A stretch of 64,000 nucleotides of DNA, taken from NCBI RefSeq assembly GCF_004010195.1, contig NC_057751.1:18259325-18323324 (forward strand), given 5' to 3'. Source of the DNA: Chiloscyllium plagiosum (taxonomy: Eukaryota). Below the pieces are notes generated by a model that did not search any database, had not been told where the DNA came from, and was given only the letters and a program-made list of their open reading frames with translations. Every line of letters starts with the position of its first letter. Positions within the stretch are counted from its first letter, which is position 1. The translations under genes were made by a program, and so were the position numbers. Of this stretch, positions 2,495 through 47,124 are shown piece by piece.

Positions 2495-3380
2495 TTAATT
2501 TAGTGACGATATTGTTCCTTTCTCATGGAAAATGTGGTATTTCCTCTTCGATCACTCACTACCTTCTGGCTATGGCAATGGCAGATCTGCTCTACATTAT
2601 TACAGCGGTCATACTGTGCTGGATCGCGTTTTATTATTTCTCAACATCATTCTTTCTCATTGCACTTGTGTGTAGTGTTATCAATGCTTGGTTTCGGGCG
2701 ACCACAGAATTTACAGTCGGCTTCACGCTTGCTTACACCTTTTATCGATTTTCTCGATTTGTTATCAAAATCTAAGGGCAAAATATTGCTTTGAGGGAAC
2801 CGCAGGTGTAGTTCTAGCAACAGCCAGTGTTCTCATCTGTTTAAAAAACATATCTCACTACATTATATAGGAACTGAGATATGTAATTGACAATGTGCCA
2901 TGATTCTGTTATGCTCTCTTATACTAATATTGGATGGGTTGTATTTATTAGTTTGCTATGGTTACAGCCCCGTTTGTCCCATTTGTTTTAATTTTATTGT
3001 TGAATGCTCTGACGATTAGACGCATTTTAGTAAGTAGTGACATCTGTAACAGACTCAGAATTCAGAACATAAGAGATACTTTTAATGACACAGAAAAGGA
3101 GAGTAGGAGACGGTCTGTGATTTTATATCAGAACATCCGGCAGCTTCATTCTTCTGTGGTTGGTGCATGTCATAGATTTCTTATAGCATTACAGGAGAAA
3201 ATGCAAGGGACTACAACAATTCGGAAGTAACATTACTAAGATTTAGATTCATGCTGCACAATCTGAGTTGTTGCACAGTCACATTGATTTATAGACCGAT
3301 TCAGTCCATGTTTAGAGGGCAACTCAAGAGTCCAGTCAAGCCAATGCTTTGTCTGGTTAAGAAACAGAACAACTTAGAGC
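2495..3380 (+). pseudogene. GPR139/142-like class A GPCR exon 2 pseudogene
   Basis: Acceptor tctcccctttgcag|TTAAT; peptides NLVTILFLSHGKCGISSSITHYLLAMAMADLL, PFVPFVLILLLNALTIRRILV, ESRRRSV, LSCCT..FRGQLK are colinear with the intact copy but broken by frameshifts and stops; 3' end approximate. Confidence 0.9.
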
Positions 3381-5116
3381 AGCCTAGAGGCTTCTCGTCC
3401 ATTACTGCCAAATAATTCACATTCAAAATTAAATGCATTACAAAAAGCTATGGAAATGCACCGAAACATGATTGTCTACTCGTCAACACTCATCCAACTA
3501 TTGTGTTATCTCTTCTAAAAACTCCATTAACTTTGAAGACACCAATTTCATTTTGAAAATTGATGCTCTGTCTTTCTGATGGGACTGGCACTTTCCATGT
3601 GAATAACAATTCTGTCCTTAACCGTCTTTTCCGGAAATTTTTACAGTTTGTAACCTACCCGGCGTTTAATTTCTGGTCTTGCACTTGCAACCTTGCTTGG
3701 AAAAACAGTTGCGATATTTCAGTCTTCTGGCACCTAGCCCCACATCTGGAGAATATCAGAGGATTGCCTGCAGGACTCCCTTCACGCTACTTCTTTTTTT
3801 CAAAGTTATTGAATGAATCTTATCTGGAACAATTTTTTGTCAACTTTGATCTCTTTCTATTCAACACTTCTTTATCATCAGATTTTAGCCCCTCATGATT
3901 CAGTCACAATGGCTTCGCTGGCACCTCCATCTTTCGTTATTCATCACCTTACACCTCAGGCGAAATGAAAAAATGATGTCCTTCCTTACAATTAAACACA
4001 ACAACTCAAAAAAGACAAACACTGAATAACACACAAAAGTGTAAATCTGTTCTTAACCGAAATCCAGCAGTAAATTGAACCAACGCTCTTATTGTAATTG
4101 GAAATCCAAGTTGATCTTCATATCAGCCTTAATACGAATTGATATCCTGTCCATTAATCCAATGCTGAATCTGATGATGAAACAAAGTGAAAGACAAATC
4201 CATTTTTGATATTATCCAAATTCCAAAATATAGAAGCTCATCAAACTCGTTTTGACACTCAAATTAATGGTTATGCTTATATAACTGGCAATTTCAAATC
4301 CATATCAAATGAGTGATCAAATTTGGACAGAACTCAATCCTTAACTATTCCCGTCAACCTAGGTATTTCTTTGTGAATGCTCACTGGAACGTATCATGGA
4401 GTGCTAAACGTAAACATTAGACTACTTTCATCAAATGTGCGCTCATCCCTTCAGCCAGCGACCTTTTAAGGCTTGATGCTGAACAGCAAAACTAGATTTT
4501 AGCACAACATACACTCTGACAAGGTGTTGAGTCACTGCCATTCAGGTTAAAACTGAGAATCTTTCTCATTGGGCTGCCCTTTGTTTTCTAATTTGGAGTG
4601 GAAAAGGGTGACGGCTGGTAGGGCTGCGGTGATTCAGCTGGAAAACGTACACGCTGTTTGTGTTTCACGTCTGAAAGTGAAAGTGTACATCCTGCTCCCC
4701 TTACTGCCACCACAGAAACCTGATTGCTACGCTCTCTCAAAGAATGAGAGCAGTTTGCATGTTTTGCTACGTGGATCCTTTGACAGCTGAAGCAACTGTC
4801 CCTAACTTCTGGAGCGCCGCTCCTTCATTCACAACCACCTGATAAAGGACCAACGCCCCGAAAGTTCGTCCTCCCAAATCGGTCTGTTGATCTAAAACTT
4901 GGTGTTGCATAATTGTTTTTAACTTTCTGTAGAACAGTCTAACACCATCACCTCGAAAGAAAGAGATTAAGTCCATGTGTGTGGAGCAACGATAAGGGCT
5001 TAATGGAGTGACAAATCTAATGTAAAATAGAATAGCTGTGGGAATTTAGAGAATGGAACAGCCAGAGAGATTGAAGATGATTGAAAGATGTTTAGATTAG
5101 CCGCCGAATTAGTTCT

Positions 5117-5475
5117 AGTTTAAGATTATGAAAGGATTGGACACTCTGGCAGTAGGAAACATATTTCCACTGATGGGTGAGTGCTGAACCAGAGGACACA
5201 GCTTAAAAATACGGGGTAGACCATTTAGGAAAGAGCTCAGGAGAAACTTCTTCACCCAGAGACTGGTGGCTGTGTGGAATGCTCTGCCACAGGGGGATTC
5301 ATTTAAGAAGGAGTTGGATAGAGCTCTCAAAGATAGTGGAATAAAGGGTTATGGAGATAAGGCAGGAACAGGATACTGATTAGGAATGATCAGCCATGAT
5401 TATATGGAATGGCGGTGCAGGCTCGAAGGGTTGAATGGCCTATTCCTGCACCTATTGTCTTTTGTCTATTGTCTA
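5117..5475 (+). mobile_element. CR1 LINE 3' end, 5'-truncated
   Basis: RGHSLK / RNFFTQRLVAVWNALP-type 3' region, then gggttgaatggcctattcctgc and a (CTATTGT)-like tail. Confidence 0.85.
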
Positions 5476-5725
5476 GCTTTAACTTGAATGCCCGACAGTC
5501 TGCTGTTCAAGCAATATGTTTACTTCTCTGGCAAGTGTATTTGCAATGGGAGAGAGATGAGTGAAACTCTAACGGTTCCCTGTTTTTGCTCTGGCCATGT
5601 GATCATACCGGATGGACTTGCCTGATTACCTTGCCTGAGGATGTCAGACAGTCAATTCCGTGAAATAAGTATCTCACAAGACGTAAGCCACAGTTTGGTG
5701 TAACAAGGGTGATCTATGTCTCTAA

Positions 5726-6087
5726 GGCACGATTGCTCAGTGGTGAGCGGCACGGTGGCTCTGTGGGCAGCATTGTTGCCTCACAGCGTCAGGGACCCGG
5801 ATGCGATTCCAGCCTCGTGTGACTGTCTACATGGAGTTTACTCATTCTCATCGCGTCTGCGTGGGTTTTCTCTGAGTGTGCCGGTTTCCTCCCACAGTCC
5901 AGAATATGCAGTTAAAATGAATCTACAATGTTAATTTCCCCATAGAGTTCAGGGATGTGTAAGTTATGTGCATTAGTCAAGGTAGAGGAATGGGTCAGGG
6001 TGGGATATTCTTCGGATGGTCGGTACAGACTTGCTGGATTGAAGGGCCTCTTTCCAGACTGAAGTGATTCCATTCTCTTCTATGATT
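5726..6087 (+). mobile_element. HE1-type tRNA-derived SINE
   Basis: Head ggcacggtggct..gcattgttgcctcacagcgtcagggacccggatgcgattcc, core gtctgcgtgggttttctc, CR1-like tail gaagggcctctttcc. Confidence 0.8.
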
Positions 6088-10365: not shown

Positions 10366-10616
10366 ATAATAGATTTAAATGATATGACAATATACAAGAA
10401 TTTGGCAACGATAGATTGGACTGGTAGAACATTAGATTCGAATCCAAGACCAATAGAATTAAAAGTACTACAACGTATTGGACTGTCAAAAAAATAGACT
10501 GGAATTGTACAAAAATAAATTGGAACGATATAACAGATCGGAATGGTGTGAGAACACTTCAAACTGTGAGAAGAATAATCTCGAATGGTACAACAATGGG
10601 AAGGGGTTTCTTTGAG
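10366..10616 (+). repeat. Degenerate 21-bp tandem repeat (~11-12 units, consensus ~ACA ATA GAT TGG AAT NNN ANA)
   Basis: Units include ACGATAGATTGGACTGGTAGA, ACATTAGATTCGAATCCAAGA, AAAATAGACTGGAATTGTACA, AAAATAAATTGGAACGATATA, AGAATAATCTCGAATGGTACA. Confidence 0.75.
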
Positions 10617-10734
10617 ATGATGAGTTTATTTTCTAATCATATTGATCGTATCTCACTGAAAAACCGCATCCTAGCCATCATTCGGATTACTCAATTCATT
10701 TACTATCCAATTCTCGCTTTTTTTGCAGTACCCG
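10596..10734 (+). CDS. Exon 1 of intact GPR139/142-like GPCR (N-terminus and first half of TM1)
   Basis: acaATGG start; MGRGFFEMM...IYYPILAFFAVP; phase-1 donor CCCG|GTAAGT at 10734/10735 joins in frame to exon 2. True start may lie further upstream. Confidence 0.85.
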
Positions 10735-11953
10735 GTAAGTCCTTTGTACTTCGATTAACTTTGCTATTTATGGTGCGCCCCTTATTGCCGTGGTTGTCTT
10801 TCTTGCCAGTTGCTCACTCTGCAAGTATTTCAAGAGTTTGGCAGCGCTTGAAATTTATTGTCTTACTTTTGCTGCTTGCAGTATCCCTCGATATTGGTCG
10901 GTTTCGCCAGTAACCCTCGCTATCTTGCAGTCTTAGTGAGTAGTCACTGATTAGGTACGATATGTGCACTATTTTCATATCCAAGTTGACCAATTTACTC
11001 TATAATCTTTGTTTTCATTGCAATCATCACTGTTTAACTATTGACCCAATCATGTACTTACATTAGGGTAAGATCTTTTACATTCTATCCATTTCTAAAA
11101 TGCTTTGGCTCAAAAATCTGGCTTGACATGCCTCATCGGTCAGCCATTGCCATATGCTCCTGCTGTCTCATTTCACTCTTGTCAATCGCAAGCACAAAGC
11201 ATTGCAGCACCCAATAGCTCTGATAACAGTTCCAGCAAAGAACAAATTCATATTTTCATTCACATATCACATTTTCATTCCGATGTGATCACTGCTCCAG
11301 ATCTTGACAATGCCTCTTCTGTTACGTGCATAAATTTTGACACACTGGCTTGAACACGGAAGTCAACACTTATACTAAAAGGTGATCGTAATATAAAGGA
11401 GGACAAGAATTAAGAGCCGGTGTGAGCCATTCATCCTTGGACACTTGCTGAATTGCAACTTGTAAATGGCTGACAGAGCGAATGTTTTATGTTTTATGTG
11501 TGTTTCATTTATGTGTATCAATTCATTCTGAATTTAGCCCATATTAATCCAGGAGTGTTTAGTAATTATCACGGAAAATTTATCCCTATCAACCCCACAC
11601 TGACCAGGAGATGAGTGCATGCCAAATCTCGGGCACAAAACTATACTAACCAACCTCTATGTGAGTTTCCAAAATATCAAGCTGAGCCACGGTGATTTAT
11701 ACGGTGGTGCAAACTTCATTGAAACAACAAGAAACATTTCAGTGAACAGCAATGTTTATCTCAATATAAATTTTTATTCCATGCTCGATTTACAGAATGG
11801 TAACAGTTGGAAACAGCCAATAAAATAGGCATTGATACAATCTCTTGCAACATTGATGAATGTGCAATGCCATTTCCAGGTTCAATCAATGCTCAGTAAA
11901 TCTGATTTTATTTTGCTCAGAAACTTTTACTTTATTGTTTCTTTTCCTCACAG

Positions 11954-12909
11954 CTAATGTAGTAACAATTCTGATATTGTCCCGGAAAAAGTGTGGTCTC
12001 GCCCAGTGTGTCAGTCACTACCTGATGGCCATGGCCATGGCAGATCTGCTGGTTATAATCATTGACCTCACATTGAGACACATTCCATTTGTGTATTATG
12101 AAGAACATCATTTCTTAGAAGGCATACCTGTATGTAATGTACACGCTGTCCTGATTTATGCAGCCACAGACTGTTCTGTCTGGTTCACTACCATTTTCAC
12201 CTTTAATCGATTTGTGGCCATTTGTTGCCCAATACTGAAAATTAAATATTGCAAAGTGAAAACAACGTCTGTGGTTCTGGGAACAGTTCTTGGATTGAGC
12301 TGTTTGAAAAATATTTTCTGGTATTTTATGTTTACAGGCAAGTATTACAGGAGGAACAGACCCTGGTTTTGTTGGCTGAGAGGAAATGTCAGGTTTTCTC
12401 CGGTTTGGGGAGCAATTGAGTTAGTTCATTATATACTAACCCCGGGACTTGCCTTCACTGTCGTTCTGTTTCTCAATGTTTTCACGGTCAGACACATAAT
12501 AGTGACTAGCAAAGCCCGAACAAGACTCCACTTTCAGGACAATAAAAAGAGCAGCAGAGATCCTTTGCTGAAGAATCGAAGGAATTCCATTGTTTTGTTG
12601 TTTCTTGTCTCAGGGAATTTTCTACTGCTGTGGTCTGTATCAACAGTGTATTCCATAAATTGGAGAATCAAAGCTTTGGGATATCGAACTCGAAATCTAC
12701 CTCAATACGTCATGGAACTGGGTTACATGCTCCAGATGCTCAGTTGCTGCACAAACACTGTGATCTATGCTGTCACGCAACCTAAGTTCAGAGGGCAGTT
12801 GAAGAATATAGTGGAATATCCCATCACACTATTTATTAAACTGAGGACCTGCACCATTGTCAATCAATGCTGCAGAAGTTTCTGTGCAATCCACAAACCC
12901 GGTGTCTAA
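11954..12909 (+). CDS. Exon 2 of intact GPR139/142-like class A GPCR (TM1 end to C-terminus); spliced product 364 aa
   Basis: Acceptor cttttcctcacag|CTAAT; uninterrupted ORF with ANVVT (N1.50), AMADL (D2.50), PVCN (C3.25), FNRFVAICCP, PWFCW (ECL2 Cys), LLLW, SCCTNTVIY, KFRGQL helix 8. Confidence 0.92.
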
Positions 12910-13938
12910 TTTCCAGACACACTTGAAACAAGCTTATTTGTCCAGGACTTTTAATCAGTGATTTTTACTCTCTAATCCGATAGCCTGTATCGGTACACTT
13001 TTTTATGTGTTTCTATTTGTGTGTGTGTATGTGTACATGAGTGTAACCACAAGATAGAGGGGTAGGGAGAGGAATATGTTTTAGTCACCGATCTGCTACT
13101 CAGAAGTGATGACATTATGAAATGTCGTCCAGTTTGAAGTTGATAAACACGGCCATTGAACCTAATTAAAAGAAATCCAAACGCGTGAAAAGTTATAGTA
13201 CCCTGCAAACAAAAAAAATCCAAATTTGAAATGATAGCACGGTAAGTAGGCAGTGTTAGACTTTTAAGGAGACATTTAATAAATCTCAAACACGGCAGTG
13301 TTCACTCAAACACACTTTAGTGAGAAGGGCGTAGCATTCGTGAATAACCTCGATTTCAATGTGAATGAAACCGATTATGGCTGTGAACTTGACTTGCAAA
13401 GAATGCTTTGTTTAAACCAGCAACGGATGATTTTCAAAAAAGGAACAAGGTAGAATGAAAATATAAGTTAGCGAGAAGTGCTTCGAATAGCTAATAGTAA
13501 CAACACCTATAAGGAACATAAAGAGATGGCAGCAGCGAAAGGAAGTATTCATCCCTGCGTGGATGGATCTCTGGAATTAACAATGTCAAAGTAACAAGTA
13601 ATATGGATTGAACAAACAATTTGCATATCTTTTTATACATGAAGGCATTAAAAATGATCAAAATAATAGAAAATCAGGCACTAAGTCATAAGGATGGAGA
13701 AAAATATTGAAAACTACCTTTGTATCATCTGGGAAGAACATGTGTTATTCTGCATTGTAATAAGGAGCACGTACTGCAACATTTTGGAGAAAGCAGAAAG
13801 GTAATGATACTCTCCTGAACAATAAATGCAGTTCCAATGGTCCAATTAGCCTCCGTCTGTACTGTATCAATTTAGTAATTCGATCAGGAAAACAAAGCCA
13901 TCTAATACGTATATTAGTTCCCTAGACTTTAGGTTACT

Positions 13939-19306: not shown

Positions 19307-19568
19307 CCCACCTCAGGCGACTGACTGTGTGGAGTTTGGACGTTCTCCCCGTGTCTGCGTGGGTTTCCTCCGGGTGCTCCGGTTTCCACCCACAGTCCAA
19401 AGATGTGCAGGTCAGGTGATTTGGCCATACTAAATTACCCGTAGTGTTAGGTACTGGGTAAATTTAGGGGTATGGGTGGGTTGCGCTTCGGCGGGGCGGT
19501 GTGGACTTGTTGGGCCGAAGGGCCTGTTTCCACACTGTAAGTAATCTAATCTAATCTAATCTAATCTT
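19307..19568 (+). mobile_element. HE1-type SINE, 5'-truncated, young, with (CTAAT)n tail
   Basis: ctcaggcgactgactgtgtggagtttg..gtgtctgcgtgggtttcctccggg..gggccgaagggcctgtttccacactgtaagtaatctaatctaat. Confidence 0.9.
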
Positions 19569-19813
19569 AAAAAAAAATCATTGGGTAATTAAGTTGTAAG
19601 GTTAGTCATGTCTCTGAATGAACATGTTCAAGAATAGTCATGTCAGGCACCCCACTCTCACTGCCCCCCACCCACCATTTATCTCTTTATCCTGGAGACC
19701 TGTAAGTAATCTAATATAATCTAATCTAATCTTAAAAAAAATCATTGGGTAATTAAGTTGTGAGGTTAGTCATGTCTCTGAATGAACATGTTAAAGAATA
19801 GTCATGTCAGGCA

Positions 19814-20007
19814 CCCCACTCTCACTGCCCCGCACCCACCATTTATCTCTTTATCCTGGAGACTTCCTGCCTCTATTCGTGATGAAGGGCTTCTGCCCAA
19901 AACGTCGAATTTCCTGCTCCTCGGATATTGCCTGACTTGCTGTCCTCTTCCAGCACCACTCTGATCTAAACATTGGTTTCCAGCATCTGCAGTCCTCACT
20001 TTTGCCT
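19814..20007 (+). mobile_element. Penelope-like element 3' terminal fragment with a hammerhead-like motif
   Basis: attcgtgatgaagggcttctgcccaaaacgtcgaat, end ccagcatctgcagtcctcacttttgcct; flanked by ATGTCAGGCA (19804-19813, 20008-20017). Confidence 0.75.
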
Positions 20008-20959: not shown

Positions 20960-21820
20960 GTTGGAATAGGAAAAGGAATAAGTTACACGTGGAGTCAGAG
21001 AAAAAGGTTGAGTTTCTTCACGAGACCGTTGCATAGTATTCACTGAGGAGAGGGACATGACAGATGTTGAGGGTAGGGATAGATCTTTTGATCACTCCAG
21101 ATTAAGTCGATATAAGGAGGGAGAACGTGTCGAATATTCCAACAGGCAATAAGTTAGTCAGGTCGACAAGGTCCGGATGCATCAAACCCAGGATACTGAG
21201 GGAAACGAGACCAGAAGTAGTTGGGTCCTTAACAGACATATCATTGAACACAGGTGATTTTCCCAGAGGACTGGAGAATTGCTAATGTTGTCCCCTTGTT
21301 AAAGAAGGTTATCAAGGATAATCCAGGTTATTATAAAACGGAGAGCCTGACGTCAGTGTGAGGGAAGCTACCGGAGAAGATACTGAGGGAAAGGATCTAT
21401 TCCCAATTGGAAGAAAATTGGCTTAACAATGATAAGCATCATGCTTTTGAGCAGGCAAGATCATGTCTTACCAACTTAAAAACCTATTTTGCGGAAGTCG
21501 CAAAGTTGATTGATGAAGAAACGGCTGTAGGTATTATTTACGTGATCTTCTGTAAGGCATTTGATCAGTTTCCCCATAATAAGCTGACAGAAAAAGTAAG
21601 TTCGCAAGCGGTTCATTCCGTACTGGCGAGATGGATAAAGAACTGGCTGTGCAACAGGAGACAGCGAGTAGTAGTGGAAGGGAGTTTCTCAAAATGGAAA
21701 ACTGTGACCAGTGGTGTTCCGCAGGGATCTGTGCTGGGACCACTACTGTTTGTAATATATATAATTTATATGGAATAAGGTATAGATGGTTTCATTACCG
21801 AGTTTGCAGATGGCACTACG
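20960..21820 (+). mobile_element. CR1 ORF2 RT fragment
   Basis: SCLTNL, FCKAFDQFPH, WIKNWLCNRRQRVVV, SGVPQGSVLGPLLFVIYI. Confidence 0.9.
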
Positions 21821-22920: not shown

Positions 22921-23871
22921 AACATAGAACATAGAACACAGAACAATACAGCACAGAACAGGCCCTTCGGCCCACGATGTTTTGCCGAACATTTGTCCTA
23001 GCTTAAGCACCCATCCATGTACCTATCCAATTGCCAATTAAAGTTCGCCAATGATTCTGACTCTGCCACTCCCACAGGCAGCGCATTCCATGCCCCACCA
23101 CTCACTGGGTAAAGAACCTACCCCTGACATCTCCCCTATACCTTCCACCCTTCACCTTAAATTTATGTCCCCTTGTAACACTCTGTTGTACCCGGGGAAA
23201 AAGTTTCTGAACATCACTTCATGACTCTTGAATTCAATCCCTCTGCTAATGAACGCTAATATACCATAGGCCTTCTTACAAGCTCTATCCACCTGAGTGG
23301 CAACTTTCAAAGATCTATGAACATAGACGCCAAGATCCCTCTGCTCCTCCACCTTACTAAGAACCCTACTGTTAACCCTGTATTCCGCATTCTTATTTGT
23401 CCTTCCAAAATGGACAACCTCACACTTGGCAGGGTTGAACTCCATCTGCCACTCCTCAGCCCAGCTCTGCATCATATCTAAGTCCCTTTGCAGCCGACAA
23501 CAGCCCTCCTCACTATCCACAACTCCACCAATCTTTGTATCATCTGCAAATGTACTGACCCACCCTTCGATTCCCTCTTCCAAGTCATTTATAACAATTA
23601 CATACAGCAGAGGACCCAGAACTGATCCCGGTGGAACTCCACTTGTAACTGGGCTCCAGGCTGAATATTTACCATCTACCACCACTCTCTGACTTCGACC
23701 GGTTAGCCAGTTTTCTATCCAACTGGCCAAATTTCCCTCTATCCAATGCCTCCTGACTTTCCGCATAAGCCTACCATGGGAACCCTTATCAAATGCCTTA
23801 CTAAAATCCATGCATACTACATCTACTGCTCTACCCTCAACCACATGCTTGGTCACCTCCTCAAAGAATTC
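22921..23871 (-). mobile_element. Young CR1 (RT to 3' end, internally deleted) nested in an older + strand CR1 (~22690-22915 and ~23872-24070)
   Basis: 248-aa ORF with DFSKAFDK, GVPPGSVLGP, FADDTK, FNPAKC, RDLGV; (AACATAG)n tail at 22921. Confidence 0.95.
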
Positions 23872-24539
23872 TGGTTGAAAAGTGTAAAATTCTAACAACA
23901 GCGGATATCATAAATCCAAGAAAGTTCTTTCGTCGAGCAGAAGAGCCTCGGCAAAGGAGGAACGCATTTGGAACTGGGATGCGGTGAAACATCAACACTC
24001 AGTGCCACGAAACTGTGGAACTCTTCATCAGCAAAATAGTGAAGGCCGCGCACATGTACCTACTTCTTCAAAATGATGAATGCTTTCACCTCCCCCTCAC
24101 TTAAAGGCAGGGAGTTCCAGACTCCCACTTCCTATTGGTTGAAAAACCAGTACTTTCAATTCCACCAAATCTGTGTCTTGCTTCATATAATCGATGCCCC
24201 GGTCATTGACACCTCCAGCAGTGTACAATATTCTGTCCTGTCTACGTTATCTTTGCCCCTACAGCTTTAAACAGACACAAGTATACCCGCGCCTCACCCC
24301 ACACAAGTGCCTCCAGATTTAACAGAATAACAGGATCAGCCTTAGTGTGAACTGAGCCTGTGTCCCCAGAACATTTGCCTGGTGTTCTGAGCCCATTAGC
24401 ATTAACCACTATATTCCTGAATCACCTAAACAGTGAAAGAAAGTTGCACAATGTACAATGGTGTCGTTAGAATTCACCTCCCCAGTCTGTGACACTGAAA
24501 TAAAATAGCAGTCAATTACGATACTATGTTATTCCAGGA

Positions 24540-26500: not shown

Positions 26501-27199
26501 TCCCTTTAGTCTTTATGTCCACACGCATTTATCGTTCAAATCACCATTTCTGGTTGAAGTGGAGTTGGTCGAAATAGAGTTAGGTTAGAAGGATGTAGGG
26601 AGTGATAGACATATTGAAGAAATTATCTGGTGCACATCAATATGATCTCGAAGGATCGTCAACTGAGAGTATAAAAGACGAATTAATGCCACGTAAAAAG
26701 ACAAACATTCTTTGTTGTGTCCCATATGCCCCAAAACAATCAAAGAGAGGTAAAGAATTGAATTGGTTACCAAATCTGACAGTGGTACAAGCGTCATGGG
26801 ACAGTAGTGGCGAGGCATTTGAAACAATCAGGTTTTAAATAAGTTAGCTTTATTGTGCAATGTAGAGAGGTAACAGAACTCCCCAAATGCAAGCAAAATA
26901 CTTTTTCTTAGCCTGTAAGTGAGAGACCCAACAATGCAGGAGTCATTTCTGAACTAAAAATTCGGAAATGATCTTGAACTGGTGAATGTCCAATCAGTGG
27001 TGTACATTTTGGAGACAGTAATCGTAACACAGTTAGGTTTAGAACAGTTATAGAAAAAGACAAGAATAGGGGAGCAATAAATGTGCTAAACTAGGGGAAG
27101 GCTATTTTTCAAAACTCATTCGTACACTGTGGGCGTCGCTTGTGCGCCAGAATTTATTACCCGTCCCTTATTACATTGCAAAATCCCATGTGATTCAGG

Positions 27200-31199: not shown

Positions 31200-33560
31200 A
31201 ATTTAGCTCAACTGGGAGATCAAATTGTGTCGCAGTAGTGGGAGGCATTGCAAAAGGAACTGGCAAGAGTGCAGGGCAAATTGTTTCCCATAAACACTTG
31301 GAGAACTTGAGCATAACTTTTAAAGGTTTCTTCAGGCAGGAGTACACCTGAAAAGCGGGAAAAAATGCGCATTCCTTCGAAAAATAAAGTGAGGTTGTTT
31401 AAACCAGCCTCCGCTCTCATGTCTCCACCAGAGCAAAGGTATTTCCTTGAGTTGGTGAATTATTACAAAATGTTCACAAGTAAACTAGCCTCCATCTCTG
31501 CACCCGAACAGCGGCTATTGGTAAAAGGGTTAGCCTTGAAAATGACGTCAAACCAATATGTAGCCTTTAAGGAACTGATAATGCAATTATCATCACTCAA
31601 GATGCTGGCCCACTGCAATCCCAAACGCGATGTGGTGCTGACATATGATGACACCTAATACAGTATCACGATTTGTTGTTTCCTTGGAGGCCCAAACCTT
31701 AGAATCGCCTGAGAGCCTATGCTTCCCAAAAGTTTTAGCCGATGTCCAAAACAGATCATCCCAAAGAGAGAAGCAAGTCTTGATTGTCATGTTTGTGCGT
31801 GAAAGTTCCGGAGAAAAACCTTTTAGGATGTGAATTAGCATTAGAAATCGACCACAAGCTCCTACGGTAATAACTAAGGAACAAGGCGATATATACCCAT
31901 AGCTTCTTTTCGAAATAAGCAGGGCCCCTTTCTCTCAGATTGTAAAATTGCATTCGGTGCATTCGAGTAGCCAAGTAGCAGATGGGGATTTCTCTCTTGC
32001 CCCACGCTGACAGATACACCAACCGTGGTGCATCCCGTGGAAGAGTCCATTCTGGTTTTCATCTTTCTGGTCATCGTTTCCATCACTTCTGACAAAGCCC
32101 ACTTTTGCAAACAAAAATGATCTTTACTGGCAAAACTTGAACAGTTTCTGATTATGATTGGCGAAAGTAAAGCGCCATCACAACCAGAACTAATCTCTTT
32201 CTCGACCTAGCGGGATGAGATTACTGTAGACGATGGCATAATGTTATGGGGTAGAAGAGTGATTGCCCTGACAATTATCGTCACCAGTTACTGGCTGAAA
32301 TCTACAAGGATAATCGCGAGAAGGCTATTCCAAAATGAAAATATTGGCAAAAGTTCTTTTTTGGTAGCCATAATTGGATGCTGACATAGCAGAATTGGTG
32401 GGAGGACCAACACGGAAGTAAACTACCGCGAGCAGATCTCCCAAATACGTGCAAATGGCTGGATAATCGCTGGACTCGGTTGCAGTTCAACTATATTGGT
32501 CCTTCCATGAGCTCAATATTCTTGGTCAATGTAGATTACCTTCGATATGATTGAATGTGCACAGAATTCAGTCGCAAAACTCGGGGATGACAATAACAAT
32601 ACATGGACTCCAGGAAGTATTGGGCACGGGCAGCGGCACGTCGTTTACCAGTAGTGATTTCGAGTTTTGCAGAAAGTCAAATGCCGTTTGGTATGTCTGC
32701 ATAGATTCATTCAAAGCCTTGTACAATGGTTCGGTTGAAACGGCAGTTCTAAGGTTGAATGAAAGCTTAAAAAGCAGCATACAGTCTCACTCGATACTAA
32801 ATGGCTCAAGTTTCTGTTTGATTACAAAAGTTCTATCAGAGTTGCTGATGGGGGTGAACCCTCTGCACTAGGTCAAATCCGATATTCCTGCACCTGGGGG
32901 GAAGGGTGAAAACGCATCAGGAGCGCCAATGTCATCTACTGACGCCTGTATGCGAGAGACAGCTTTCTTCAGGTGATGACGTTTCGTATTCAAAACACTA
33001 AAATGATTATCTGTGGTCAATGGTAAAGTCAATGCAAAGTCATGTCCCGTGACAATCTTGTCTATCACATGAAAGAAGTTACTTCCAAAAACCAGGCAGG
33101 AGGAAAACATCGAGGAGAAAGTGAGGACTGCAGATGCTGGAGATCAGAGCTGAAAATGTGTTGCTGGANNNNNNNNNNNNNNNNNNNNNNNNNNGGGCTT
33201 ATGCCCGAAACGTCGATTCTCCTGTTCCTTGGATGCTGTCTGACCTGCTGCGTTTTTCCAGCAACACATTTTCAGCAGGAGAAAAACATACCTCGTCCGT
33301 TCAGTACAGCCGTAAGTGGCGTCAAACACCGTGGTTTCTCCTTCTCCAGCTCATGAGAAAGAAACCTCCTCATCTGCGGTGGATGCATGTCACAGCATCC
33401 ATACGTGTTGCATCTAAGGCTGAGGAGGAACGTCTATTCAGACGCTCCAGGTACAAGAGACAGTTTATAGACCGATAAAATGCTCCCTGTGCTCAATTCC
33501 AAACTGAAGTAATCGGATCTCGTACAAAAGCTCAAGAAAAATGAACAGGTTTTTACACTC
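31200..33560 (+). mobile_element. Ty3/Gypsy LTR retrotransposon pol remnant (RT end, RNase H, integrase), multiply frameshifted
   Basis: FLELVNYYKMF..LASISAP..LL, LAHCNPKRDVVLT, SSQREKQVL, DHKLL, WGRRVI, WTRLQFNYIGP, GLQEVL, GTSFTS, NGSVETAV. Confidence 0.85.
33111..33274. mobile_element. PLE-derived fold-back insert within the Gypsy remnant (26-N gap at centre)
   Basis: Arms gctgaaaatgtgttgctgga / tccagcaacacattttcagc; gggcttatgcccgaaacgtc; flanks GCAGGAGGAAAACAT / GCAGGAGAAAAACAT. Confidence 0.8.
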
Positions 33561-33585
33561 GAACTTGGAGATGGGTTCGGGAGAT

Positions 33586-33917
33586 TGACGATGGTGATTA
33601 GAAAGTGGTGAGCCATTGATTCCCATTGTGTGTAAGTTCAAATTTTGGGTGATGTTAAGCTGGGCCGATGAAATATAAGTAGGAGAAAGTGAGTACTGCG
33701 GATGCTGGAGATCAGGAAAAATCCTGATGAATGGCTAATGCCCAAAACGTCGATTCTCCTGTCCCTCAAACGCTGCGTTTGGTATAAGTAGATGCCTCAC
33801 GGATTGTCCTCATACTCGTGACTGGCTCTGAGCGGGCTGTGTACTGTCAACATATTTTGCACATGCAAAAGAAAACGTGACTTGGTGACGGTTTACTGGC
33901 TAGCATGGAGTTATTTC
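33586..33917 (+). mobile_element. Probable 3' LTR of the Gypsy element, interrupted by a PLE mini-insert at 33683-33782
   Basis: Follows pol and a purine-rich tract; ends gtgacttggtgacgg..gagttatttca; boundaries approximate. Confidence 0.45.
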
Positions 33918-35639
33918 ACGACTCGAAAAGGGTTTCAATGTGTTCAAGCAGAGTTTAGTAAGTATGGAAAACATTGCCTGGAAATGTGATGTGGGCAGTT
34001 TCATTTGAGACATTCAAGAGGATGTTAAAGAGTTCTGTGGTTAGAAATGGTGCCCAGAGATATGCGACAATGTCAGGAGATTTGGGATGATGAAGCAGAA
34101 CCAGGGTACACGCACGATATGCCTTCTGCATTGTAATAACGTTTTTTTTTCTCTGTGAAATGAGAATGGCATGGTTAGAAATATCGCAGTTCTGTGTTTG
34201 CCATGGATATGGGCCTTAAAATTATGGAAGATTTATTAACAACAATAAACTTCCAACCCAGGCCTGAATAAGTTGAACCTGCCCGAAATCTTAACAAAGC
34301 AATTGTGCGACCATGTTTTGTGGAAGCCTCGTCTTCAAGTATAAGAAAGGTTATTTTTGACGAGAAGTTCAATTTCACAAGAATTAGCAGGAATAATGGG
34401 ATATAGTCAGCATTATCAATGAGATAATTTATTGGTTATCAAGCATTTTATTTTGAGGAAGATTTCTACTGCGGAGGGAGGTAAATTTCTTAATGATGAT
34501 GACGAACACATATCATTAGGATTGTGCAGTTCTGTGGGGTTATGATGGAAATTAGATTAACCACGATCATATTGAATTCTGGAGCGGGCTTTCGGGTTAC
34601 AGGGAGCTCCTTGTGTTTATTTTTGTGTAGTTGTGAAACCATTTGAAAGCATTACTGCATAGAGTTAAATGTTTTTGTTTTAAATGGTATAATGTTGATT
34701 GATATTCATTTATGTAAATTCATTCACAGCCCACTGTGAATATGATCGTTGATTCATCATTGCAGAAACAAAACTGCAAACGAGAAATATGAGGCCTATC
34801 ATGTTCGCAACTGTTTTACTGACAATGACTTCCCTTAAGGAGTGGGCAGGTTTCTTTCAGAGAGACAAGCAAATGAATTAATTGTAGGAGATAGTAGGGG
34901 TTGAATAGGCCTGTCAAAGTAGTAGTTCAGTTCAGGGGTCTTCGAAAGAGTCAGGACAGAAGTCCTCTCGCCTCACCACTCCACCCCATCCGCCTCTAAC
35001 ATCTCTCTCCTTGTGATAATCTCTCATTGTAAGTATTGTCTGCTTCTGAATACGTATCTGGTAAATGGTTTTTCATAGCAATGCAACTATGATCAAGCTC
35101 AAGACAGACATTGAAGAAATTGACACATTTCCTGCTGCATTCAATCAGGGACAGGAATAATACCTAATAATTGAAGTAGTTTCACTTAAATGTGTTTAAT
35201 GCCAAATTATGACAGCAATTTTCCATGCACAGCATACCGTTCATTCGAAGAGAGACGAGACAGAGAGACAGAAGAACAGAAACAGAGGCGAAAAATCTCG
35301 TTAAGAAATATCTTCATATCCACTGTTTGTTTTGCACTGGTCGGTGTTGACTACCAGGTGGCCTGAATGGTCACCGAGCATGCTGTGAAAGTCGATGAAA
35401 TTCTGAGTAGAACCTGTCATGTCTTTTGATGCAAATAAGGGTCTACGTTGTTAAGTTGTGATTCCAAACTTCGAGGATTCAGTGATTAATGTCAGAGTAT
35501 ATGGTTACTAATTGTGCCCTTGGAGGGTTTTCTTCTTATATTAATTAGGGAATATTTCCAAAGTGTTATGCCATAGATTCAGTTGGAAACCACACCTCTG
35601 ACACAAACAGTGTTCAGCACCTTACGAGAGCGGGAGCGG

Positions 35640-35803
35640 AAAGATCCAAATCTGAGAACAAGATATTGGAATGTTCTAAAAGTGGATCAGAATCTGTGAA
35701 CAAGAGATTGAAATGTTACAACAATGGCTAGGGATTTATCCGATATCTTCACTTTCATTATCTATTCAGTATATTTCCTATCTCATCCTGGCTTGCACGC
35801 CTG
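35640..35803 (+). pseudogene. Degenerate orphan GPCR exon 1 with 21-bp repeats
   Basis: aatgttacaacaatggctagggat resembles aatggtacaacaatgggaagggg (10584); IQYISYLILACTP resembles TQFIYYPILAFFAVP; donor CCTG|GTAGGT; stops in the repeat frame. Confidence 0.7.
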
Positions 35804-37369
35804 GTAGGTCTCCCAGTCTAAGAATCTTGTCTAACAGTAAGATTGATCTGGCTATTCATTCAGTCAATATCTGTACTGGTGCTGTTCTTACTGAGCATCG
35901 TTGAGATATAAATTTCTACTTTTGAGCGTCAGATTGAACCCATTATAAGATCGTGGGAGGTCTTTACCTCATCCTCAGCTGGTTAGAGAGCAAGTAGCTC
36001 AAGCAACAAATAACGCAAGAATAAAAGTATTTTCCAGCCCGCCTTTCACCTGAAATGCATCCTCAATACTTTCCAATTATCCCATCGAATTGTTGCATTT
36101 CAACATTAATTAACACTAACCCTCATCCCCCAACCCCTGCCACAATTTTAAATGTTTGTAAAGTATTCTACAGATTATGTGTCTGTGTTCTGTTCACAGA
36201 AACTTATAATAAGAGGTGCTTTCTGTTAACCTATCCTCCATTTTGAAAGGTGGCCAACTCTTCAGCCTCTGCTGCTGCAAGGCCAAACAAGTCCAGTCTA
36301 CGAAATCTCTCTTCAATTCAAAACCTCTCCATTCCAGTCAGTTTCCTGATAAATCTCTTCTGCACTCTCTCCGGTCAAGTGCATCGTCCTGCAATGTGTT
36401 TACAGACAATGCCCGAGATGTGGTCTAACCAAACATTCATATAGATGCATAAAAACTGCTTTATGAGATCCAACAAGACTGTTCATTGCAGCAGGGGAGT
36501 CCAGTTATCTAAGTTTATCCAAACTATGTAGAGATGAATACATGGCTTTAATGATCAGCAATAATCGCATATTAAATCTCGGTCGCTCTGCCGAGAAACA
36601 AGAAAGCTGTTTGGACAGGAGGGTGTCGAATTAAATTGGAGGTTAGGTTTCACTGAATGGGACATGATATGAACACAGTGATCTATTTTGAGCACACCCG
36701 TATCCTTGTTGTATTCTTACTGAAAATCCTATTCAATCAAACCTCATCAACACTCCCATTCCGTTCACACGTCGCAATGTCCACCGTCACTGTCCACATC
36801 GTATCCTTAAATCTCATCAACCTTTCCAGTCTCCACATCCATCATTACTCTCCTCTCCCTCTGCACCATCTCCCATAGCCCATGGTCCAGTCTCGTTGCA
36901 TCTTTTTACGCCCTCCTTCTGCTCGATCATCTCTCACACAAAATGGGCCATTTACTTTCCATCATCACTCTCCCCTCTCACGCCGCCATCTCTCACAAAA
37001 TATGGGGCAATCTTCCCGTCTGTTATCAATCTTCCCTCCTGCTCCACCATTCCTCAGACACGGTAAGCTGTTGACCATGTACATCATGCTTCTCCCTTGC
37101 CCCTTCACCATCTCTCATGCTCAATGGGCCGGTCTTCCAGTCTATTGTCACTCTCCCCACTTACTGCACTATCCTTCAGACCCCAAGGGACAGTAACCAT
37201 GGCCAGCATCACTTTTTCGAACATGACCCTTAGCACTACCATCCTATCGATTAGTCGCTCTGTCCCTCATTGTTGTCCCTCACATTCTACCATGCATAAC
37301 CTCCCATTGGCCAGACAACTGATTTGTCATTGCCCATCATCTCTCTTCTCACCCACAAACACTGCAGAA

Positions 37370-37770: not shown

Positions 37771-37774
37771 TATA

Positions 37775-41205: not shown

Positions 41206-41214
41206 CTGCATTCA

Positions 41215-42761: not shown

Positions 42762-43579
42762 GTAAGTCATTTTCCATATTGCCCACCTCCTCAACCTTGC
42801 ACCCTCGCTGATCTGTGGTCACGCCTTGGTTTTGATCGTCACCAATGTCTCTCACAGATGACAGAGCAGGAATATAGGATTCTAGAACGAGGTCAACTTT
42901 CCATGTAAACGAATTTCTGACTTCTTCATTGTTTTCATACTTTTATTGGCAATGTGACGTGCTGACCTGGCGCTGATCATTTCAACGAGAGCTGATGCTT
43001 CATCGTCGATGCTAAAATTATCAGATTTCAGGGCTTTTATACTGATTCAAATGTGAAAATGTCTCCTTTTTTGAATTTAAACGATTAGGAACCTATCCAT
43101 TCATTATTTGCCAGAATATCCTGCATCGTCAAATCAGACTTCATGACTAACACTTCGCTGAGGGAAGGCCCAAACTACGGGTCATTGTAGAATTGTGTTG
43201 ACTATGTAAACCAGAGTGACCATATGCTTGTGGCTTTATGCCAAATGCCGGCCACCAATCGAATTGGAATCTCAATGACCTCCCTCTGTATGATATTACT
43301 TAGTGTGCCTGCAATGAAAAGATTCAGTTGAACTTCAAATGATTATTTCAGGAAAGTGAGTCATCAACTCTATTTCTTTTCGTTCTTAAGAAAGAAAAAA
43401 GAAAAGTGCTTTCAAAGTGGAAGAGCTTTTTTTGTCAGTCCTGAAGATATTTGACAGTAGGTGTAGTGTGATATTGTTCAGTTCAGAGTGCATTGAACCA
43501 AGCAGAGTCCAACATTGACAATTCATGTGTTGTGCAGCAGAATTGAATGGTTACATATGAAACAACAAATTAAAGCTGG

Positions 43580-44110
43580 CATTAAAAATAAAATTTAAAA
43601 ATGCCGTATAATCTGAACAGGCTTGGCACCATTGGAAAAGGAAAAAACAAAGTTAATATTTTGAGTCTAATATGATTCGATTGTGTTACATCTCTCTGAC
43701 TTTGAAATCAGTTTGCAGCCATTGGGACTTCATGTTCAATGCCGCATTTTCAAAGAATAACGTTTGTCCTTCATCACCTTCACCCTGCCATCTTTTCCCA
43801 TTTATCCTTTGTGTCTGTTTGAATTTTTCCTTAGCATAGATACAATTACTTATTTTCATATCCATCTTACAAGTCTGTAACACCTTTTATTCATTTTTCT
43901 CTTTTCTTTGCACCCTCCCATCTCTTCCACCCCTTCCTGTTTGGCATCGTGAAAAATAACAGTCTGCTTCATACCTGGGTGATATCTGAATGTGAAATCT
44001 GTTTCTTTTCTCACAGACGCAGCGCAAAATGCTGCATACTTAATTTGCATTTTCCGTTCTTGATTCAGGTTTCAAGCATCTGAAGCAGTTTATTTTATAT
44101 TTTTTCCTTT
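43580..44110. mobile_element. Old PLE-derived fragment with inverted termini
   Basis: aaaatgccgtataatctgaacaggcttggcacc..ggaaaaaacaaagttaa is loosely inverted to tctgtttcttttctcacagacgcagc..gcattttccgtt. Confidence 0.4.
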
Positions 44111-44469
44111 GTGTGAATCATTGCAAGAATGACAACACGAAAGCATTTTTCAAACGGTAACAATGTTTTCATGAAGGGAAAGGAGAGGAATATTTAGATG
44201 TTACCTGACAGCAATGTATGAAATAAAGAAGTTATTTTTAATGGATTGTAATATGTAATATTGCATCCATATTACACATTTCCCACGATATTATCATTTT
44301 TTTAACAACTCTTTGATGTACGGATTCACCACTTGCTTTAGCTCTCGAACTCATTCGCTGTGATTACACTTCAATGCGTTCATCACCAGATTGTTGTTAT
44401 TAATGATCTGCGAGGGTGCATAACTGAAACGTTGCTTTGACATATCAAAATATTTATGATGCTAAGACT

Positions 44470-45440
44470 TTTGTTATTTGTTATTTAGATAAATGATCTG
44501 GATGTGAATGTGCAAAGCAGGTTTAGTAGGTTTGTGTATGATAAAAAAAATCGAGTTATCGTTGATAGCGAGGAATATTATTAAAAATTTACAGAGGAAA
44601 CTTGACCAGATAGAGAAATGCGTTGAGGATTAGCAAATGGAATTCAATGCAGAGACGTGTGAGATGATTTTTTTTTACAAAGTCAAACGACGGTAGGACT
44701 TGTCTCGTAAGTGGTAACGTCTGAGGTGTGTTGTGGAACTGAGGGAACGAGGGGTTCAAGCACATAGCTCGTTGAAAGTGGCGTCACAGGCCGATAGGGT
44801 GGTGAAGAAGCCATTTATCATGCTGGCATCATCAGTCGAGATATCGACGATGTCGAAGAGTTGGGATATCACCTTCAAGTCGTCTAAGTCGTTGTTGAGA
44901 CTGCACTTGGACTATTGTGTACAGTTTTAGCCACACTGTTATAAGAAAGAAATAGTTAAACTGGAAAGAGAATAAAGAAGATTTACAAGAATTTTGCCAG
45001 GACGAGTAGGCCTCAGTTGTCGAGAGAACGTGGCCATTATAGGACTCTATTCCATGGAACCTAGGAGAATGAGGGGTGACCACACTGAGGTGCATAAAAA
45101 TCATGGCGGGCATTGATGGGATGAATGTAAGTTGTCTTTGTTTTGCCTGAGATGGGAAATGAAATCTAGAAAACACAGTTTAAAGTGTCTTCTAGAGGAA
45201 GATCTAGGGAGGGCGACGGGCAGTTATTCATGTGGAGACTGCTGCGTAAATGGAATATGCTGTCAGGGAAATTGGTTGAGGCAGGAACAATATTATTATT
45301 TGTTTAAATTGGATACGTTCATGGATGGGAAGGTTTTATGGATCAATGCGAGCAATTGGATCTAGCTGAGTTGGCACCATGGCCAGCATAGAGCAGTTGG
45401 GGTGAGGGGCCCGTTTCAATGTTTTGCTACTCTCCAAATC
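44470..45440 (+). mobile_element. CR1 RT C-terminus to 3' end
   Basis: INDLDVN, GVQAHSSLKVASQADRVVKK, LHLDYCVQF. Confidence 0.85.
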
Positions 45441-46216
45441 TATGATTGCAATTTTCCCTTCAGTGTTCCTAACGTAAGTCATAATGGCGTGGTTTGCTTT
45501 GCTTTAATCCATGTTTCTCAGTAATTTCTTTTCTGAAATCCCGCTTGCATTTTGTGTTTCACCTATGCTTTAACTGCAGTCACAAATTGTTCACATCTCT
45601 AAATGTTGAAGTCGTGCATCTTCTAGTTGTCTATGGCTTACTTTTCAAGATCCCATCAAGATTTCCACAGTCCTATGCGATAGTTACTTATAATGTCATT
45701 TCAATTCTTGGTATTATGTCAGTTGTTCGATTGTCTGTTGGCATTCTTCATCTTCTATTATCCCTGTTTATCAGTATCTCGTGATGGTTCTAGTACCTCC
45801 TTCGACTTTGTTGTGCAGGAATGTAATCTTTCTGGTTTAGAGCTCTTGTCATTTTTGATTTTTTCAATCAATTATCTGCCAATTCCACATAAACTGTTTC
45901 AACGGTTTTTGGTGAACGTAAGCAAGTATTATTGGCGGTTTATCTTTGTCTCCCAGCATTTTTTTCACACTCAGTTATTATCCATCCTTCGCTTCAAACA
46001 TTACTTTTAAACAGCTGGCTGAGCTCACTTTCTTCGGCTCGCTAAAGCTCACTTGCAATTCTACCTACATCAGTAGAGTTTATCATATTTCTTGTCGAAT
46101 AAACGAGTCCTTAAAATTAAAACGGATAGAACCATTCCTGAACACAAGAAGGGCATTCAGAATGGAATTTAGCCTGGAGTACGTTTGACTAGCATTATTT
46201 CACTCGGGTTTTGCAA

Positions 46217-47124
46217 CTAATTTTATGGCCTTTGTCATTCTTTCCCGTGGTAAGTGCGGACTCTCTACCTGTACCTCTTGATCCCTAGTGGCCATGGCAG
46301 TGGCAGAACTATTGATTATGATATTTGATATCATGATAAGGGAAATCAATTTTTTACTATTTCCCAGGATTTTATGAATAACACTTACGTCGGTACTGGC
46401 TTTACTGTATGTACTCATGTGTCCACAGTCTGGTTAGTCTGATTCAATGTGACTTTCAGTTTTGATCGATTTATTGCGTTTTTTTTTTGTCAGAAGCTTA
46501 AAAGTAAATACAGCACTGAGAAAACCGCAGCCATCATGCTTTCAAAAATTGGCGCCGTGCTCTGTTAAAGGACTGGTCTAATCTACTTTTTAATTGATCC
46601 AGGAGGAAAGAAGAAATCAACAGCGTACCATCGCTCTGTAAGATGAAACCAAGCTTTTACACGAAGCACTTATGGGTGCAATCTGACTGGTTTGAAGCTT
46701 TAAAACCATTGCTACTATTCGTATTAGTTCCGTTGTTGAATGTTCTGACAGTCAACAATATTTTATTAGCCCGTCGAATTCGTAAGGGTCTTGAACATCA
46801 GAGTATTGGATCAAATCGCAGCGACTCAGAAATGAAGACAAGAAGGAAGGCCATCGTGTAACTCTTACTATGTCCTGCAACTTCAAAGTTTTATGTTTGA
46901 TGCATGTCCTGCACTTCTTATATTATACAATTACATGAATTACTCTGAGTTACTAAACCAGCAACGTCTTTATTTTTAAAGGAGTTGGTATTATGTGACG
47001 ACTTTATTGCACAAACGTATTTTTTTCTACAGTGACTCAGTCCAAATTCAGGGAGCAACTTATAAAAGCAATGGTGTATCCATTTAAACAAATTATTTTG
47101 TGCATTGAAGATAAAAATAAATAA
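46217..47124 (+). pseudogene. GPR139/142-like GPCR exon 2 pseudogene
   Basis: Acceptor position reads ttttgcaa|CTAAT (no AG); NFMAFVILSRGKCGLSTCTS*SLVAMAVAELL, FSFDRFIA, PLLLFVLVPLLNVLTVNNILLA, SEMKTRRKAIV, TQSKFREQLIKA; stops and frameshifts. Confidence 0.9.

Follow-up and report, generated by a model that had tools for sequence, protein, structure and literature searches.

Mammalian GPR139 and GPR142 are single-copy receptors that sense aromatic amino acids. The chemoreceptor families OR, TAAR, V1R/ORA, V2R/OlfC and T2R form clustered birth-and-death arrays with many pseudogenes and a variable ligand-facing surface, as does the family considered here; TAARs, like aminergic receptors, carry Asp at position 3.32. 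The FPR and MRGPR arrays of mammals perform innate-immune peptide sensing.

The known repertoires of sharks are small, with 6-13 OR, 3-5 TAAR, 2-4 V1R and 8-43 V2R according to PMC10116579. Large variable arrays have arisen from peptide-receptor lineages in the nematode Srw and lophotrochozoan class A expansions (PMC11886862). The Trp/Phe pocket of GPR139 comprises F109, H187, W241, R244 and N271, of which R244 and N271 were proposed to hold the charged backbone of the ligand (PMC5430874). Non-mammalian orphans related to GPR139 and GPR142 have been reported as GPR210A, GPR210B and a third set (PMC6504862, which contains no mention of shark) and as "Orphan 139-like" (PMC5207463). They belong to the same wider clade as the family described below, a clade containing SPR/FMRFa-type peptide receptors (PMC8514136).

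Layout of the locus and its intact gene

The window, that is, the whole analysed stretch of 64,000 nucleotides of Chiloscyllium plagiosum contig NC_057751.1, contains three homologous class A GPCR exon-2 segments, all on the plus strand (2495-~3370, 11954-12909 and 46217-47124). This agrees with a sequence-only reading of the same DNA and was confirmed by tblastn within the window, the two decayed copies giving sum E-values of 6e-33 and 4e-13. The following features were assigned:

2495..3370, + strand: pseudogene exon 2, copy 1; AG acceptor retained, 4 stops, 3 frameshifts
10384..10497, + strand: ATG upstream of exon 1 with a frame of 37 codons; homologous to the beginning of the N-terminus, itself built of repeats, in zebra-shark relatives
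10596..10734, + strand: coding part of exon 1 of the intact gene, with a short N-terminus and the first half of TM1
10735..11953, + strand: phase-1 GT..AG intron inside TM1, 1219 bases
11954..12909, + strand: second exon of the intact gene, running from TM1b through TM7 and helix 8 to the stop; 7tm_1 E 1.6e-15
33169..33194, no strand: assembly gap of 26 N inside the cluster, with dispersed-repeat ends on both sides
35625..35803, + strand: decayed exon 1, with a phase-1 GT donor at 35804
46217..47124, + strand: pseudogene exon 2, copy 3; acceptor AA, 6-7 stops and 3-5 frameshifts relative to the best relatives

The claim that a single copy is intact holds: its two exons form an open CDS of 1095 nt encoding 364 aa, whereas copies 1 and 3 carry stops and frameshifts. 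Its exon 1 (10596-10734) scored 53.8 bits in an HMM scan, against a maximum of 7.5 for shuffled sequences, and AATAAA sites lie 3' of the gene at 13278 and 13821. Three exon-1-like segments had been proposed, but only this one and that at ~35625-35803 stand out. Neither the HMM scan (highest other score 5.6 bits, shuffles reaching 7.5) nor a PSSM scan (3.6, shuffles reaching 10.3) revealed a third exon 1 in the window, and tblastn and DNA alignment scans gave nothing above shuffles; the candidates near 27140 and 45780 score no better than chance. No exon 1 of copy 1 was found in the window. Of 72 homologue N-termini, 54 match the decayed exon 1 (lowest E 4e-9), which comprises two 14-residue N-terminal repeat units, one of them with a stop, an ATG at 35724 and a frameshift. 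Its partner exon 2 is uncertain; copy 3 is located 10.4 kb downstream. The proposed shared phase-1 intron stands by homology, except that in copy 3 the acceptor is mutated to AA from AG. Similarly, the motif blocks KCGL/HYLxAMAxADL and SCCT/FRxQL are retained in copies 1 and 2 but partly decayed in copy 3.

The N-terminus of the intact protein lacks an N-glycosylation sequon. The frame starting at the ATG at 10384 ends after 37 codons, owing to a 1-base break near 10466-10481 beyond which it is out of phase with exon 1; the break is visible in two of four alignments, while the other two begin beyond it. The long N-terminal frame present in zebra-shark relatives is lost in this gene.

The intact protein is a class A (rhodopsin-like) GPCR. 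It matches Pfam 7tm_1 with 57.8 bits (curated cut-off 30.5) and carries the class A motif residues, namely the C3.25-ECL2 cysteine pair, R3.50, W6.48, N7.49 and Y7.53, along with the substitutions D3.49 to N, P5.50 to A, P6.50 to V and P7.50 to T. Position 3.49 is D in 114 of 115 subfamily members. The protein deviates, mostly conservatively, at 12 of 104 conserved columns, compared with 7-12 in 16 Stegostoma relatives; these counts lend no support to early decay, although the substitution at 3.49 and the broken N-terminal frame still stand. The gene is probably a working member of its family.

The two broken copies appear to be dead members most similar to another subfamily. Copy 1 shares 143 of 288 residues with relative P0138 and 118 of 285 with the intact copy; copy 3 shares 143 of 292 with relative P0137 and 96 of 286 with the intact copy. 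Both pseudogenes are thus 34-41% identical to the intact gene and nearer to a different, old subfamily, whose divergence from that of the intact gene predates the split of sharks and rays. The three copies are therefore of mixed origin and do not represent a recent tandem burst. Recent duplication within the window was also rejected from exon-2 DNA identities of 56-59%, against 50-55% for shuffles, and from flanks having nothing in common but dispersed repeats, which make up the self-matching ~18% of the window. Strong divergence among the copies, cited earlier as a sign of rapid turnover, is weak evidence by itself in decayed copies; the signal comes from intact relatives. The window represents a small, old, mixed array, an ordinary member locus whose interest resides in the family.

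Relation to GPR139 and to other receptor families

The family belongs to the GPR139/142-related clade, with GPR139 the nearest characterised receptor and non-mammalian relatives in between. In a careful tree of 46 of 79 rows (33 dropped, including the long-branch row P0261), the family together with a gene of amphibians and sturgeon is supported at 100/100 and the family alone at 94/89; the window gene groups with a Stegostoma cluster at 100/100. True GPR139 and GPR142 were returned by none of the protein searches and are absent from the trees. The amphibian and sturgeon gene, apparently single-copy, is the sister lineage of the family. A second related orphan extends from sharks to reptiles and is fused with TMEM183A in two annotations. 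Both these orphans are represented by about one cluster per species, and their pockets are conserved; the shark family differs from them in both respects. The genes found here may correspond to one or another of GPR210A, GPR210B and the third set of PMC6504862; the Ensembl ids named in that paper are absent from its supplement.

Human GPR139 is the best sequence match among solved structures (PDB 7vug and 9m42; profile E 2.4e-13 and 1.1e-31), although profile A2 takes in 33 relatives outside the expanded family, which raised the score. The window protein itself matches human GPR139 with a phmmer E of 2.7e-5, behind the PAF receptor, while a coelacanth paralogue is far closer to GPR139 (E 1.8e-18). 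A close relative of the window protein shares 22% identity with human GPR139 in structural alignment. The similarity lies in TM1-TM3 and TM7, and H5.43 and W6.48 are retained in the subfamily of the intact gene. In contrast, the TM3 and ECL2 cysteines are present in 115 of 115 family members and missing from GPR139 in the alignments, and GPR139 occurs as one copy per genome while the family has dozens. At the places of F109, H187, W241, R244 and N271 the intact gene has Y, H, W, S and Y, with R6.51 and N7.38 replaced; across 115 subfamily members the R244 position is F in 60, L in 36, S in 17 and Y in 2, with no R or K. The identity of about 22% found for the close relative and the two replaced polar residues speak against a GPR139 orthologue. 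The description of the locus as GPR139/142-like is thus appropriate as to best sequence match but probably not as to orthology, for which the comparison was with GPR139. A role in sensing aromatic amino acids cannot be transferred from GPR139 and GPR142, because the polar pocket pair is replaced.

These comparisons bear on the possibility that the members are internal metabolite or peptide receptors, like GPR139 and GPR142, whose copies increased in number to raise dosage or to divide the task among tissues. It agrees with GPR139 being the closest PDB sequence and with the partly echoed aromatic pocket (Y for F109, H for H187, W for W241), but the S and Y at the R244 and N271 places, the lack of R or K at the former in all 115 members and the widely different pocket residues between subfamilies make it improbable.

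Fold searches with predicted models do not discriminate among class A receptors. The model of relative P0009 has a class A fold (pLDDT 91.7) and superimposes on peptide receptors with VIA Z of 27-29 and rmsd of 2.2-4.0 A over 260-304 residues. With this good model GPR139 ranked 17th in Foldseek and was not among the 50 matches listed for the other fold search; it was likewise not among the matches listed for a poor exon-2-only model (pLDDT 65.9).

The origin of the family is independent of the vertebrate chemoreceptor families. None of 131 members matched the Pfam models of OR, V1R/ORA, V2R/OlfC or T2R at E<=0.01, the hits falling in seven Pfam families, and position 3.32 is I in the intact gene (L in 107, I in 6 and V in 2 of 115 members), not the aminergic Asp of TAARs. 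Srw-bearing clusters scored 0.96 in the Atlas feature search, with a nematode Srw-type cluster among the neighbours; the Pfam Srw model matched only one of 131 members, a teleost relative. Unlike Srw, the shark expansion is of vertebrate origin, its source being a gene that has a sister in bony vertebrates.

Family size and distribution of variation

At E<=1e-3, 948 of 1926 candidates are family hits, and the best 120 of these 948 are all from sharks or rays, including 43 clusters (90% identity) named Heterodontus, 40 Heptranchias and 19 Stegostoma. At 50% identity, 134 clusters reach E<=1e-30, and all 20 mid-scoring clusters looked up are chondrichthyan, one being from a chimaera. These counts are lower bounds from species other than Chiloscyllium plagiosum and rest on automatic gene models, some of which are isoforms, fragments, or models that are fused or contaminated with repeats. 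The RefSeq name for the family, "probable GPR139", is misleading. The suggested lineage-expanded birth-and-death family is supported by the large clustered copy number, the pseudogenes and a distribution of variability like that of sensory or immune repertoires. Neither a small number of copies nor one-to-one orthology with a known receptor was found, the copy numbers being those of other species. The proposed elasmobranch repertoire is correct insofar as sharks and rays dominate, but the family is not restricted to elasmobranchs because a chimaera has a member, and its sister gene occurs in amphibians and sturgeon. No description of the expansion was found in the openly searchable literature, and a term search of whale-shark supplements (one in part) and of a catshark cartilage supplement gave no "receptor 139" rows.

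Variation, analysed after hand exclusion of 17 long, fused-looking or repeat-contaminated models, is concentrated at ligand-facing sites at the protein level. Among 14 Stegostoma paralogues (mean identity 85.6%), ECL2 is 56.7% and ECL3 71.1% identical, compared with 86-92% for intracellular loops; a single-copy amphibian group has the reverse pattern (ECL3 87.7, ICL3 57.8). Site entropy is 0.80 outside and 0.27 inside (permutation p 5e-5). For 36 representatives across subfamilies, entropy is 2.58 at 21 pocket positions, estimated by offsets from helix anchors rather than read from a structure, and 1.41 at other TM sites, whereas two single-copy groups give 0.0 versus 0.43 and 0.65 versus 0.96. 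The signalling residues are kept (R3.50 in 36/36, N7.49 in 35/36, Y7.53 in 34/36). TM3 is 94.5% identical within the subfamily of the intact gene, and many of its members may therefore share a ligand class. An outer surface of this variability is also typical of immune and gamete-recognition receptors.

The expansion could be largely neutral, reflecting relaxed constraint in repeat-rich genomes rather than selection for diversity. Two of the three copies here are dead and dispersed repeats are frequent, but relaxation would not spare intracellular loops while ECL2 and ECL3 vary, and the intact gene departs from conserved columns no more than its Stegostoma relatives; this explanation is very unlikely. 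Least probable of all is reproductive or social recognition, with receptors on sperm, oviduct or skin reading conspecific peptides. Species-level blooms such as the Stegostoma cluster would suit it, and PMC8514136 places insect sex-peptide/MIP receptors in the clade; however, the subfamilies are common to sharks and rays, which suggests conserved ligand classes.

The pattern is consistent with a set of receptors for diverse external ligands. With a probability of roughly 0.55, this large class A family of cartilaginous fishes encodes surface receptors for varied ligands, likely chemosensory. The family descends from an orphan gene related to GPR139/142 that remained apparently single-copy in amphibians and sturgeon and gave rise to many subfamilies among sharks, rays and chimaeras. 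Each member would be a surface receptor with a constant G-protein-coupling face and a varying pocket and outer loops, and jointly they may respond to a wide range of ligands that originate outside the signalling system of the animal itself. The likeliest candidate ligands are peptides or amino-acid derivatives present in the water or in a lumen, and the likeliest site is chemosensory cells of the nose, mouth, skin or gut. No GPCR is among the 50 top genes of a catshark brain-and-olfactory library (PMC11979771); this is weak counter-evidence because V2Rs are also missing there.

The same outer-face variation and birth and death would be expected of an innate-immune sensor array on leukocytes, mast-like cells or mucosal epithelium, detecting microbial or damage-derived peptides. 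MAS1 and its relatives are reportedly missing from cartilaginous fishes (PMC8455134), and another family might therefore fill that role. This alternative is nevertheless unlikely, as GPR139 and receptors of neuropeptide type are the closest characterised relatives, chemoattractant receptors being more distant (profile E 1e-18 to 5e-19 for CCR1/CCR5, compared with 1e-31 for GPR139).

Implications for cartilaginous fishes

PMC8455134 describes cartilaginous fishes as GPCR-poor, and PMC10116579 credits them with about 10-50 olfactory receptors. The expansion is apparently undescribed and hidden under the RefSeq GPR139 label. A slice of one subfamily holds at least 40-43 distinct clusters in each of two shark species, equalling the largest reported V2R repertoire. 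The sister gene, apparently single-copy in Xenopus and axolotl, provides a laboratory handle on the ancestral ligand. If the immune role were true, the family would be a sensor array of the oldest jawed lineage that has so far gone unrecognised. Tentatively, and at less than even odds, cartilaginous fishes may own a large chemosensory family derived from a GPR139-related orphan, unrelated to the OR, TAAR, V1R, V2R and taste receptors and outnumbering the known olfactory receptors in some species, which would explain the large olfactory organs of sharks in the face of only ~10-50 recognised receptor genes. Should the receptors act in smell, taste or the sensing of stimuli at the skin, the picture of shark olfaction as one of "small repertoire, high sensitivity" would have to be revised.

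Anatomy of the receptor cluster

The cluster is genuine: three co-oriented exon-2 copies are present in the window, one of them intact and the other two carrying stops and frameshifts (counted by frameshift-aware alignment). The sole long non-repeat ORF of the window is located at 11860–12906, and exon 2 of the intact gene matches Pfam 7tm_1. The two-exon receptor of 364 residues described in the sequence-only reading was confirmed, with its exon 1 and intron, as were the three exon 2s, but of the three exon-1-like segments claimed only two were found in the window by four kinds of scan.

Receptor-related features of the window
2495–~3370, same strand as the intact gene: copy 1, exon-2 homologue with four stops and three frameshifts
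10596–10734, + strand: exon 1 of the intact gene, followed by a 1219-base GT..AG phase-1 intron inside TM1; product of 364 residues
~35625–35803: second exon-1-like segment, decayed, with a phase-1 donor
46217–47124, same strand as the intact gene: copy 3, exon-2 homologue with 6–7 stops and 3–5 frameshifts

The splice acceptor of copy 3 is AA. Spacing across the cluster rests on the assembly, because a 26-N gap is located at 33169–33194.

In 14 of 15 zebra shark (Stegostoma) models examined, 75–84 residues with 2–4 N-glycosylation sequons precede the TM1 motif, forming a series of degenerate 14-residue units. Homologous DNA in the window starts at the ATG at 10384, from which the frame stops after 37 codons; its break near 10466–10481 may be either real or a sequencing error. 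The 364-residue form uses a later ATG, and its exon 1 lacks a sequon. In family proteins P0021, P0028, P0211 and P0248, the N-termini comprise a variable number of the 14-residue units (up to nine in P0248), each starting near Met and ending in a sequon. The receptor core of the intact gene shows no excess decay: it differs at 12 of 104 conserved columns, and 16 Stegostoma relatives differ at 7–12. N stands in place of D3.49; in class A receptors this substitution frequently increases basal activity.

The window also holds several repeats. At 53801–53993, two ends of a dispersed repeat meet head to head in a near-perfect palindrome; self-complementarity holds at 182 of 193 positions, with an energy of −113.6 kcal/mol as DNA. 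In RefSeq, several receptor-family models have a false start inside reverse-transcriptase-like repeats; the fragments in the window are presumably of the CR1/L2 LINE type, judging by motifs.

Repeats of the window
19875–20001, 33113–33276 (across the N gap), 33680–33761, 49503–50157: other copies of the palindrome's dispersed repeat
488–1446, 20990–21775, 23155–23907 (minus strand), 52042–52422, 61362–62862: decayed reverse-transcriptase-like fragments
19535–19863: two tandem copies, 96% alike, of a 164-base unit
59104–59853: stop-free frame of 250 codons with 2.4 copies of an 87-base unit, resembling a LINE ORF1 remnant

Family membership and age of the array

The proposal of a lineage-expanded receptor family was upheld. 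Of 1926 candidates in a homologue search, 948 proteins reached E<=1e-3. Sharks and rays of ten species account for all 120 matches listed; 116 of these are named probable or putative GPR139, and the closest are Stegostoma proteins with 67–73% identity. When 50%-identity representatives were searched with a profile, 134 passed E<=1e-30, many of them fragments. Among 30 looked up, all 22 scoring above 230 bits are chondrichthyan, Callorhinchus included, while the eight weaker ones include a salamander, a coelacanth, two teleosts and two amphioxus. These genes are already annotated in RefSeq, but under an automatic name. No published account of this expansion was found in the literature searched, including the available portions of PMC8455134, PMC10116579, PMC11979771, PMC5207463, PMC8514136, PMC11886862, PMC13188829 and bioRxiv 10.1101/2025.02.19.638963.

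Both pseudogenes are nearest to another subfamily, represented by P0137/P0138 (48–50% identity), versus 41% (copy 1) and 34% (copy 3) to the intact gene; a recent tandem burst inside the window was therefore rejected. An HSP-only tally again assigned copy 1 to the P0137/P0138 subfamily and left copy 3 without clear placement. The P0137/P0138 subfamily includes Heterodontus, Mustelus, Chiloscyllium and the ray Narcine, and the skate Rhinoraja falls inside the subfamily of the intact gene, indicating that the split is older than sharks and rays. One Heptranchias gene model fuses pieces of both subfamilies (81% and 74% to the respective references), which suggests an old origin for such arrays of mixed, co-oriented members. 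Turnover is indeed rapid, but elsewhere: the sister group of the intact gene comprises a burst of 14 or more Stegostoma paralogues.

Relation to GPR139 and sister genes

Among PDB entries, family profiles match GPR139 best, but for the window protein itself the similarity is weak. The available text of PMC5430874 links GPR139 residues, including the polar pair R244/N271, to Trp/Phe binding. The aromatic residues are echoed in the intact gene (Y, H, W), whereas the polar pair is replaced by S and Y; in the amphibian gene, all 19 members retain K and N at these positions. The close relative P0009 gave a good model, whose fold resembles that of peptide receptors and includes a beta-hairpin in ECL2; in fold searches class A peptide receptors tied, GPR139 not being singled out. 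The intact gene is thus a member of a GPR139-related clade, not GPR139, and would function in the manner of a class A receptor for peptides or metabolites.

Of 1675 candidates, 25 matched the salamander protein. Amphibians account for 20 of these, all clusters that carry different species names; the others are one sturgeon protein and four chondrichthyan proteins at 32–33%. The coelacanth protein led to a second gene, present as roughly a single cluster in each species over a range that runs from sharks to squamates and turtles; no mammal or bird names appear among the 120 matches listed of 145. A careful tree rooted on amphioxus, built without true GPR139 and GPR142 sequences, joined the shark family and the amphibian/sturgeon gene at 100/100, supported the family alone at 94/89 and separated the second gene; in a quick tree of all 79 rows, also without those two, the SH-aLRT values were 99 for the joint group and only 60 for the family alone. 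As far as its available text goes, PMC6504862 recognises three sets from non-mammals next to GPR139/142, of which two bear the names GPR210A and GPR210B; sharks are not among its species.

The amphibian/sturgeon gene (P0233 group, P0396–P0415) encodes a receptor that carries no name; every species represented, among frogs, salamanders, a caecilian and sturgeon, has a single cluster. Its estimated pocket is invariant in 19 of 19 members, and it may bind a conserved endogenous ligand. The second gene, a conserved GPR139-like receptor (P0281 of Stegostoma, P0379 of Hyla), is annotated as a TMEM183A isoform in a shark and a frog, which suggests a location in or beside the TMEM183A gene.

Distribution of variation and possible function

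Variation, measured at the protein level, falls mainly on the outer side in the 14 Stegostoma paralogues. At a mean identity of 85.6%, ECL2 retains 56.7%, ECL3 71.1%, ECL1 78.6% and the intracellular loops 86–92%; entropy is 0.80 outside (60 sites) versus 0.27 inside (68 sites; p 5e-5). The single-copy amphibian/sturgeon group (19 full-length members) is reversed (ECL3 87.7, ICL3 57.8, helix 8 56.5). Coupling residues are fixed across the family, and neutral drift as the source of this pattern appears very improbable. Immune sensing is unlikely, and a role in reproductive recognition is the least probable use of all.

At 21 estimated pocket positions, entropy among 36 representatives is 2.58 versus 1.41 at other TM sites, and inside the subfamily of the intact gene 0.81 versus 0.57. 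In both single-copy groups the pocket positions are instead less variable than other TM sites. Sensing of internal metabolites by the expanded family is improbable, though somewhat less remote than drift. Chemosensory use in the broad sense, as judged from sequence, has a probability of about 0.55; use specifically in an olfactory or taste organ is a tentative suggestion. Anatomy, fold, family, tree and variation have been demonstrated; in the likeliest reading, the family would be a repertoire that combines a fixed G-protein face with varied pockets and so detects many outside ligands.
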